64,000 nucleotides of DNA from Escherichia coli (GTDB lineage Bacteria > Pseudomonadota > Gammaproteobacteria > Enterobacterales > Enterobacteriaceae): the NCBI RefSeq assembly GCF_003334405.1, contig NZ_QOWM01000004.1, one strand, 5' to 3'. Below are positions 8,161 through 10,858 of this stretch, piece after piece. A program made the translations under genes and the position numbers. The stretch's first letter is position 1, and each line of letters begins with the position of its first letter. A model generated the notes under the pieces. That model did no database searches. It was not told where the DNA came from and was given only the letters and a program-made list of their open reading frames with translations.

Positions 8161-8892
8161 TTAGGGGGCATGAAAGATGACTTTATAACCTTGCTCACCC
8201 CAGTGTTGTAAAAGTTCGTTTTGCCTTCTCGTTGGTGCCATGCCTGTCCAGACAATCAATGTTTGCGTCGGGAACAGTTCCGGGCGCGGCGATTCAATGG
8301 GATCAGCAAGAACAGAAATGTGCCATCCTGACAATGATAAACGCCATGCTTCCAGCCACAATCGTGCTCTCTCTTCAACATTCCACGCCATCAGAATGGC
8401 TTCTTTACCGGGCTTACGGCGCATTTCGAAAAGCGAGGTTGCTGCGTATTCAATTAATGCGCCGTCAAACATACTGCTCATAATGCGGGAGGTGTTGTGA
8501 TCAAGCACGAGACGCTGGCGAACAGGAAGGTAAACATGATTAATCAATTGATCTACTGGGTACTCTCGACCCAGTGAAATAATTCTCGCGCGTAGTTTGG
8601 CAGGATTAGCCATGCGAAGAATTGACATCATCTCTTCTTGCAGGCGGCTCCAGTCATCTTCCGTATCCTGGCTGGTGGTTTCCAGTAATGCTTTAACTTT
8701 GCCTACAGGGACGCCATTACTTATCCAACGCTTGATCTCTTCGATGCGTTGTATGTCTTCTTCATCAAAGAGTCGGTGTCCGCCTTCACTGCGCTGTGGT
8801 TTTAACAAACCGTAGCGGCGTTGCCAGGCCCGGAGAGTGACAGGATTAATCCCGCAACGTTCAGCAACATCACCAATGCTGTAATAAGCCAC
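8161..8892 (-). CDS. bluR: MerR-family repressor BluR (YcgE)
   Basis: ORF track 243 aa; N-terminal MerR helix-turn-helix [47 protein letters not shown]. Confidence 0.9.
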
Positions 8893-8942
8893 AATTCCTC
8901 CTTGCGGTCACAAATCTCCGTCGCCTGTACACGACCCAATAA

Positions 8943-8978
8943 TACTTTGTACAATATACGCTAAAATTGTACAAAGTA
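8943..8978. promoter_or_regulatory. Perfect 13-bp inverted repeat TACTTTGTACAAT-N10-ATTGTACAAAGTA upstream of bluR; candidate operator
   Basis: Read directly from sequence; lies 51-86 bp upstream of the bluR start codon; each arm contains the palindrome TTGTACAA. Confidence 0.35.
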
Positions 8979-9096
8979 TAAATAAGATTTCAGCTAAATT
9001 GGATGAAACATTATTTTTAATGTGGATTAAATTTAAACGTAACGTATTCATTTTTACGATGATTTACTGAAATCATGTGAAAGAATGTGCTGAAAA

Positions 9097-10308
9097 TTAT
9101 TTTTTCTCTGGCCACGCTATGGAAGGGATACCATTCAATTTAGCTTTAGCAAACAGATCTCCCTGAAACATCTCAATTCCTGCGGATTCAAGCCACATCC
9201 ACTCTTCTGGTGTTGCCACGCCCATAGCACTGACTTGAATTTCAAGTGATGTACAGCATTTTATGATCGCCTGAATAATTGCCTGCCGTGGCCCACTTTT
9301 ATGAACATTGGTAATCAATTCCTGACTGATTTTAATTCTGTCAGGCTGGAAGCGTGACAGGAGTAACAAACCAGCAAAACCTGCGCCAAAATGATCAATT
9401 GCTACACTGATACCAGCAGCCTTTAGCGATTTAATCGCTTCGGCAAACTCATCAAACCGAGATATGACTTCACTTTCAGTAAATTCAACGATGATTTGTT
9501 CAGGCACCAGAGCATTGGCCTTTATTTCATTAAGTAAAAAAGAGACTGCGTCAGGTTCGTTAACCAGGGTCATAGGTAATAGATTGATTGAAATCATTTT
9601 ATCACCGAGCTCAAGTGCGTGTGCCATCGTGAATGCAAGCGCCTTACTTTTGAGATCCGCTGTGTAGATTTCCCCGTCTTTACGCTGCCCAACCGCTATG
9701 GCTGATGGGCTATCTTCATTTTTTTGCACAATGGCTTCAAAAGCGATTATCCGCCGCGATAAGGGATCGACAATAGGATGAAAGGCAAAGTGGTCGTTTA
9801 TAGTTGGTGAAAGGGCACAGGAATCAAGTTCTTTATCAGATCCGTCAGCGATAAAAAGCCAGGAGTCTTCGGCAGGGATCTCGAAATAGGTTGATTGTTC
9901 GGTTGCAAGGACAAAAGTACGAAAAAATTGTAGCGCTCTGTCATCATAAGTTAGCTGAAATTTTGATGTGCCTTTGTCGAATACGGCCTGTAAAACGTCA
10001 TCTCGCTCGTGCAGGCGCAAATCAAATAATTCCATTCCCGCTTTGCCAAAACGGCGAGCAGGCGCGTAATCGCACAGCAGCTCAACAATATTATAGTGCC
10101 GTGGATCCTGGCATATAGCCCGATATATCATTTTAACCTGTTCTTCCGGACCTTCCAGAAGCTGGAAAAAATGAGAACCATTAAACAGTAAGATCCCTGT
10201 TACGTCAGACTGCATGTTCCTGCGATTTGCTATCGAAACCATTTCTTCGATTTTTTTGACAGGTTCGTCGTCACGTATATGGCTACGATAAATAAGGGTG
10301 GTAAGCAT
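9097..10308 (-). CDS. bluF: Blue-light sensing BLUF-EAL protein BluF (YcgF)
   Basis: ORF track 9097..10386; recognised start MLTTLIYRSHIRDDEP gives 403 aa; BLUF domain N-terminal, EAL-like domain C-terminal. Confidence 0.9.
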   Translation of the reverse strand: MLTTLIYRSHIRDDEPVKKIEEMVSIANRRNMQSDVTGILLFNGSHFFQLLEGPEEQVKMIYRAICQDPRHYNIVELLCDYAPARRFGKAGMELFDLRLHERDDVLQAVFDKGTSKFQLTYDDRALQFFRTFVLATEQSTYFEIPAEDSWLFIADGSDKELDSCALSPTINDHFAFHPIVDPLSRRIIAFEAIVQKNEDSPSAIAVGQRKDGEIYTADLKSKALAFTMAHALELGDKMISINLLPMTLVNEPDAVSFLLNEIKANALVPEQIIVEFTESEVISRFDEFAEAIKSLKAAGISVAIDHFGAGFAGLLLLSRFQPDRIKISQELITNVHKSGPRQAIIQAIIKCCTSLEIQVSAMGVATPEEWMWLESAGIEMFQGDLFAKAKLNGIPSIAWPEKK

Positions 10309-10539
10309 TAACAATCCAGGGTAATGGGTGAGGCGAGAGTAAGACGGTAACAGACATATCTTCTTGTGTCTTTCTTTTAATACCAAAACATAACCGTTTC
10401 TTTACATTGATAAAAAATGGAAAAAGTTGAACACTAGTTGGCGAAAAATCTTGTATAGATTGTCAGTTAAATGATGCAATATGTTTTATCATAACACATT
10501 GTTTTATATGCATTAGCACTAATTGCAAAAAATTAATTT

Positions 10540-10570
10540 ATCATTCTGTACACATATTTCGTACAATTTT
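10540..10570. promoter_or_regulatory. Candidate BluR operator / ycgZ promoter element
   Basis: TGTACA at 10547-10552 and GTACAAT at 10561-10567 in the bluF-ycgZ divergent intergenic region; same core motif as the palindrome upstream of bluR. Confidence 0.3.
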
Positions 10571-10621
10571 GCTATTGTTACTTCACTTAACATTGATTAA
10601 CATTTTTAACAGAGGCGTAGC

Positions 10622-10858
10622 ATGCATCAAAATTCAGTGACTTTAGATTCTGCGGGAGCAATCACTCGTTACTTTGCAAAAGCTAACTTGCATACTCAGC
10701 AGGAAACTCTCGGGGAAATTGTGACTGAGATTTTGAAAGATGGACGTAATCTGAGTCGAAAGTCGCTTTGTGCCAAACTTCTTTGCCGACTGGAACACGC
10801 GACTGGGGAAGAGGAACAGAAACATTATAATGCACTAATTGGGTTGCTTTTTGAATAA
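10622..10858 (+). CDS. ycgZ: Small regulatory protein YcgZ
   Basis: ORF track 78 aa; first gene of the ycgZ-ymgA-ariR-ymgC cluster. Confidence 0.85.
   Translation: MHQNSVTLDSAGAITRYFAKANLHTQQETLGEIVTEILKDGRNLSRKSLCAKLLCRLEHATGEEEQKHYNALIGLLFE

Follow-up and report, generated by a model that had tools for sequence, protein, structure and literature searches.

The canonical operators of the MerR family, such as those of MerR, CueR, ZntR and SoxR, are dyads centered in a 19–20 bp spacer that separates the -35 element from the -10 element. MlrA, a paralogue of the MerR-like repressor BluR, activates csgD from a site located far upstream of the csgD promoter. Its recognition sequence in the csgD promoter, the MlrA box, stems from Ogasawara et al. 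2010, as cited in PMC3509220, and is also bound by BluR, albeit weakly (PMC3509220). The BluR site itself was found in E. coli K-12 by DNase I footprinting (Tschowri, Lindenberg & Hengge 2012, Mol Microbiol 85:893; PMC3509220). It was described as two overlapping elements, the direct repeat GTACA...GTACA and the palindrome TGTAC...GTACA, situated over the -35 region and the 18-bp spacer of the ycgZ promoter (PycgZ), with hypersensitive sites inside the protected stretch that indicate bending. In the same study, electrophoretic mobility shift assays (EMSA) with five mutant sites showed that point mutations in both half-sites reduced or abolished BluR binding, mutations in the GTACA cores fully derepressed a ycgZ::lacZ fusion in single copy, and knockout of bluR alone likewise led to full derepression of ycgZ. 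BluF binds BluR directly (both domains) and releases it from the DNA (PMC3509220). PycgZ is moreover a target of MarA, which activates σ70-dependent transcription from a marbox according to ChIP-seq, EMSA and in vitro transcription data, and an 'extended -10' with σ38 determinants as well as an A/T-rich UP half-site have been described (PMC6900184).

Here, we analyzed a 64,000-nt stretch of the E. coli chromosome (hereafter the window). According to the open reading frames (ORFs) and RefSeq annotation, ymgA, ariR/ymgB, ymgC and pdeG lie together with ycgZ on the plus strand, divergent from bluF and bluR, and the motif pair under study is located inside the 313-bp bluF–ycgZ intergenic region. 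The features of the locus are:

8161–8892, minus strand: bluR (ycgE), MerR-like operator-binding repressor (ORF and RefSeq annotation of DNA that is identical or nearly so)
9097–10308, minus strand: bluF (ycgF), BLUF-EAL anti-repressor of BluR (ORF and RefSeq annotation; function from PMC3509220)
10516–10530, plus strand: marbox GCACTAATTGCAAAA, MarA activator site at -69 to -55 with its center at 10523 (pattern match with one mismatch)
10547–10565, plus strand: BluR operator of the ycgZ-ymgABC promoter, TGTACAcatatttCGTACA, at -38 to -20 (published footprint, EMSA and lacZ mutagenesis, primer mapping, conservation)
10547–10552, plus strand: promoter-distal half-site TGTACA at -38 to -33, overlapping the -35 hexamer (mutations C-39A/T-38G(/G-37A) at 10546–10548)
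10549–10554, plus strand: -35 hexamer TACACA of PycgZ at -36 to -31 (position deduced from the published 18-bp spacer and +1 = 10585)
10560–10565, plus strand: promoter-proximal half-site CGTACA at -25 to -20, with its GTACA core at -24 to -20, in the spacer (mutations G-24A/C-21A at 10561 and 10564)
10570–10578, plus strand: extended -10 TGcTATTGT at -15 to -7, with a σS-type C at -13 (computed from +1 = 10585)
10585, plus strand: ycgZ transcription start, +1 (derived from the primer names in PMC3509220)
10622–10858, plus strand: ycgZ, at the head of the BluR-repressed ycgZ-ymgA-ariR-ymgC operon (ORF and RefSeq annotation)

Mapping of the BluR operator onto the ycgZ promoter

Positions 10540–10570 of the window read atcattcTGTACAcatatttcGTACAATttt (the longer stretch with both motifs being ...atcattcTGTACAcatatttcGTACAATtttgctattgtt...), with TGTACA at 10547–10552, CGTACA at 10560–10565 and GTACAAT at 10561–10567. 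The initial annotation had described a TGTACA core occurring twice in this region; indeed, the 5-mer GTACA is repeated, but the full hexamer occurs only once and its second copy reads CGTACA. The location it gave, about 55–75 bp upstream of the ycgZ ATG, was exact, since the ORF list puts the ATG at 10622 and hence the motifs 75 to 55 nt upstream of it.

The mutagenic primers in supplementary Table S1 of PMC3509220 align to the window at 10540–10560 and 10553–10574. The primer 'C-39A, T-38G' has the sequence ATCATTAGGTACACATATTTC, compared with the wild-type ATCATTCTGTACACATATTTC at 10540–10560, while the primer 'G-24A, C-21A' converts CGTACA to CATAAA. From the primer names, T-38 corresponds to 10547, G-24 to 10561 and C-21 to 10564, which places the ycgZ +1 at 10585. 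This position agrees with the published primer extension, around 36 nt upstream of the ycgZ ATG, and with the published marbox center at -62. As the intergenic region contains GTACA only twice (10548 and 10561) and TGTAC once (10547), with no further copies, the mapping of the operator is unambiguous. The site overlaps the -35 hexamer and the spacer of ycgZ, combines the GTACA direct repeat with the overlapping TGTAC/GTACA inverted repeat, and holds the bases at which mutation eliminates both binding by BluR and repression.

We are therefore almost certain that the two motifs are the BluR operator of PycgZ, an element that was published in 2012 and is hence already known. The initial annotation had suggested as much for the BluR-repressed ycgZ promoter, and the comparison it proposed with the published footprint bears this out, since the operator does not map elsewhere in the intergenic region and the published mutated bases fall inside both motifs. 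Physical protection by BluR was published for K-12 (PMC3509220), and the operator sequence is identical in the window strain. The element thus corresponds to that of K-12 in its motifs and position, with a single differing base, T versus G, at approximately 10568 (about -17), outside the half-sites and immediately 3' of the proximal one. The final T of GTACAAT is consequently strain-specific, being T in the window and G (GTACAAG) in K-12 and most of the sampled E. coli.

PycgZ is a σS/σ70 promoter and the sole promoter of ycgZ-ymgABC. With its half-sites at -38 to -33 and -25 to -20, bound BluR covers the -35 hexamer and the spacer and would block RNA polymerase and bend the DNA, such that steric occlusion of the -35/spacer region is the probable mode of repression. 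BluR presumably sits as a canonical MerR-type dimer on the ~19-bp pseudo-palindrome TGTAC-N9-GTACA. Blue light, mainly at low temperature, activates the BLUF-EAL protein BluF, and the ensuing release of BluR derepresses ycgZ-ymgABC, whose small proteins then activate the Rcs phosphorelay. The ycgZ operator controls the switch through which E. coli responds to blue light and cold with activation of Rcs and with less curli and biofilm. Both the identity of the operator and this mechanism have been established since 2012, so finding the site again brings nothing new.

Compared with canonical MerR operators, the ycgZ site is similar in being a pseudo-palindrome of ~19 bp within a longer-than-optimal spacer on bent DNA. 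However, PycgZ is not a canonical MerR-type activatable promoter, as its spacer is 18 bp long and the center of the dyad lies at about -29, over the -35 hexamer instead of in the middle of the spacer. Furthermore, and again unlike canonical members, BluR only represses, and it is a protein antagonist, BluF, that takes it off the DNA, with no ligand turning it into an activator (PMC3509220).

Conservation of the operator and competing readings

Using BluF as the anchor, we fetched 80 loci from species-representative genomes, 41 of which carried bluR downstream and ycgZ divergently upstream of bluF. Together with E. coli this gave 42 orthologous loci, covering among others Citrobacter, Klebsiella, Enterobacter, Atlantibacter, Kosakonia, Leclercia, Pectobacterium and some Erwinia and Pantoea. 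Exact TGTACA-N7/8-NGTACA was present in 34 of the 42 bluF–ycgZ intergenic regions across the Enterobacterales, with a spacing of N7 in 29 and N8 in five, a second hexamer reading TGTACA in 26, and a position invariably 75–87 nt upstream of the ycgZ ATG. The eight exceptions each retained one perfect hexamer with a degenerate partner. By contrast, the same pattern had no match in 273 kb of flanking sequence on both strands, and no TGTACA pair was found in the negative control of 24 BluF loci without bluR and ycgZ. Occurrence of the operator is therefore linked to that of bluR and ycgZ.

Among the columns of an anchored alignment built from 27 non-redundant loci, those of the two hexamers were the most informative, and the consensus was TGTACA.tTtttatGTACAa.TTT. 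Within E. coli, the 20 bases TGTACACATATTTCGTACAA were invariant across nine divergent alleles while flanking positions varied. The cross-genus consensus is TGTACA-N7-TGTACA, which is new in this analysis; the proximal half-site of E. coli (CGTACA) is degenerate, whereas most other genera have TGTACA.

Several further observations concern the surroundings of the operator. In E. coli OkiPb01684 (locus L088, 2248–2999), which carries one of the nine alleles, an IS1A element is inserted 4–5 nt upstream of the operator, at the equivalent of window position ~10542, and leaves the operator and core promoter intact while displacing the marbox and the UP half-site. In E. coli TW11681 (L085, 1943–2180), ycgZ is annotated as a frameshifted pseudogene, yet operator and promoter are intact. 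A conserved block, TTAGCAC-N5-TGCTAAAAA, located ~20–25 nt upstream of the BluR operator (window 10513–10535), corresponds to the MarA marbox (Kettles et al. 2019) and was recognizable in ~15 orthologous loci of several genera (among loci L001–L063); MarA/SoxS/Rob input to ycgZ thus seems to be widely conserved. Lastly, in most genera except Escherichia and Citrobacter (among loci L006–L063), the proximal TGTACA lies 15–16 bp upstream of a conserved -10-like element, which is TGTATAAC for ycgZ and TAGnTT for bluR. At this distance the half-site itself would serve as the -35 element there, and, judging from these alignments, the E. coli bluR and ycgZ promoters appear shifted relative to their dyads.

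Could the motifs be core promoter elements, or have arisen by chance in AT-rich DNA? A consensus scan does list a σ70-like TTATCA-18-TACAAT at 10538–10567, with its -10 at 10562–10567, and a lone TGTACA occurs at background frequency (15 copies in the window versus 12.5 ± 3.8 expected; P ~0.20 for at least one in a simulated intergenic region of the same size and composition). However, promoter-like sites were no commoner than in shuffled sequence (2 versus 1.8), the mapped start at 10585 uses the -10 TATTGT, and TACAAT reads TACAAG in most E. coli, such that the T/G polymorphism at ~10568 makes the σ70-like element strain-specific. The paired motif, on the other hand, is non-random and deeply conserved: the probability of a GTACA-N8-GTACA pair was ~0.001 for the bluF–ycgZ intergenic region, and one was observed in the whole window, on both strands, against ~0.03 expected. 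The concern raised in the initial annotation, that the motif might merely reflect the background of AT-rich DNA, is thus dispelled for the pair. We consider the promoter-element or chance reading, including TTATCA-18-TACAAT, extremely improbable and ruled out by the published footprint, the mutagenesis, the start site and the poor conservation of that element.

Two other regulators have to be weighed against BluR. An MlrA box that in the cell is occupied chiefly by MlrA instead of BluR is suggested by the GTACA core of the csgD site (AAAGTTGTACA-N12-TGCACAATTTT) and by the closely related MerR-like helix-turn-helix motifs of the two proteins, which differ in four residues (PMC3509220). We confirmed the csgD box in K-12 as TGTACA-N12-TGCACA (L089, 1058–1090). 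Yet the half-sites of the ycgZ operator, despite the same TGTACA/GTACA core, are separated by N7 (13 bp from start to start) and not by N12 (18 bp), so that the site does not have the geometry of the MlrA box, a 33-bp palindrome TGTACA-N12-TG(T/C)ACA with A/T-rich flanks. The ycgZ operator also lies inside the core promoter and represses, in contrast to the activating csgD site. As the bluR knockout is sufficient by itself for full derepression and the literature examined mentions no influence of MlrA on ycgZ, we regard occupancy mainly by MlrA as very improbable. The second candidate is RcdA (YbjK, TetR family), for which Shimada et al. 2012 (PMC3535384) give the box TTGTnnACA and its own operator as TTGTGTACAttTGTACACAA. 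The motifs could be, or could also be, RcdA boxes through which RcdA controls bluF and/or ycgZ, overlapping or competing with BluR. Genomic SELEX and DNase I footprinting placed RcdA in the ycgF–ycgZ spacer, with a protected band of 36 nt termed 'promoter-proximal' and boxes termed 'tandem' (PMC3535384), and the distal half-site shares bases with boxes of at most one mismatch (TTCTGTACA at 10544, CTGTACACA at 10546 and, on the minus strand, ATGTGTACA at 10547–10555). RcdA may therefore share bases with BluR, and the CA extension TGTACACA is limited to the E. coli/Citrobacter group. However, the text of that paper does not spell out which sequence the band covers, and the sole box it names, TTGTATAGA, lies at 10451–10459, ~95 bp away. 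The RcdA box resembles the BluR operator in its TGTACA-like core and shares the same intergenic region, but the protein family differs and the proximal GTACA half-site does not match. Moreover, the paired motif is conserved along with bluR and ycgZ, and in the published data GTACA mutations derepress to the same extent as the bluR knockout, which means that BluR accounts for the repression. A role for RcdA at these motifs is thus unlikely, though less so than one for MlrA, and the pair is best read as the BluR operator.

A second dyad in the bluR promoter

Beyond PycgZ, TGTACA occurs three times upstream of bluR (8926, 8948 and 8968), and the latter two copies belong to an extended palindrome:

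8942–8979, no strand assigned: perfect 14-bp inverted repeat ATACTTTGTACAAT-N10-ATTGTACAAAGTAT (TGTACA-N14-TGTACA), candidate second operator in the bluR promoter

Full TGTACA pairs 5–25 nt apart were found within the window solely upstream of bluR (8926–8973), with ~0.04 expected; the dyad scans covered the window, the fetched loci and a K-12 stretch of 45 kb. Published data put the start of bluR transcription 54 nt ahead of the coding sequence, at ~8946, and a promoter-like TTTATA-18-TATATT reads from 8982 down to 8953. Taken together, these positions place the inverted repeat at roughly -33 to +4, over the -10 and the start site, with the third TGTACA (8926–8931) at ~+16.

This dyad is conserved along with the locus. 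TGTACA-N11-14-TGTACA (N13 being modal) was located 79–88 nt upstream of bluR in 27 of the 42 orthologous loci, as opposed to no match in a 273-kb background. Most of the remaining loci had dyads with one mismatch, for example TATACA or TGTATA, and two loci with a bluF–bluR gap of 62 bp were without it. Among eight E. coli alleles the arms of the dyad were invariant, while the third copy (8926) was mutated in one allele. The bluR-upstream dyad is thus a genuine conserved cis-element, separate from the ycgZ operator.

The initial annotation had linked both sites into one candidate regulon motif. Shared hexamers and conservation of both sites with the locus speak for this idea; the spacing does not, as it is N13–14 (19–20 bp from start to start) at bluR versus N7 (13 bp) at ycgZ. 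As far as the hexamer goes, a single regulon is thus a plausible conjecture. In its spacing, the bluR dyad is nearer to the MlrA box than the ycgZ operator is. From the sequence, autoregulation by BluR through this dyad, or control by MlrA, is plausible; in the literature searched, whose scope did not extend to Tschowri et al. 2009 (Genes Dev), neither binding of BluR or MlrA at this dyad nor autoregulation of bluR was reported, and no relevant ChIP-exo or SELEX data turned up. Tentatively, and with slightly more doubt than confidence, we hypothesize that TGTACA is a recognition unit shared by the BluR/MlrA branch and used at two spacings, and that the candidate second operator TTGTACAA-N13/14-TTGTACAA (8942–8979) lets BluR or MlrA repress bluR. 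Should this be true, auto- or cross-regulation would be added to the BluF-BluR-Ymg-Rcs circuit, and, with BluR repressing bluR, the blue-light circuit would gain a closed loop of negative autoregulation. A further question would then be how much variation in spacing MerR-like proteins tolerate, since either one MerR-like dimer would have to tolerate a 6-bp (half-turn) change in spacing or the oligomeric state would differ per site. The bluR-promoter dyad is the sole lead of this analysis that may be new.

Two other explanations of the bluR palindrome were rejected. It does not represent an intrinsic terminator of bluF, as there is no terminator-like site and no T-run, and orthologs keep the TTGTACAA cores alone without conserving the stem. 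An ancestral autoregulatory dyad common to mlrA was likewise discarded, given that the region upstream of mlrA in K-12 is without TGTACA.

A related arrangement was seen in Siccibacter and Pantoea, where homologues of ycgZ have a BluF paralogue nearby and no bluR next to it (L049, 1422–1446 and 4985–5009; L052; L065–L080, e.g., L070 7024–7048) and no regulator gene for them is present within the fetched 7 kb. In 13 of 16 such loci, TGTACA-N13-TGTACA is located ~70–95 nt upstream of the ycgZ homologues, with the wide spacing found at bluR and unlike the N7 seen at ycgZ in E. coli.
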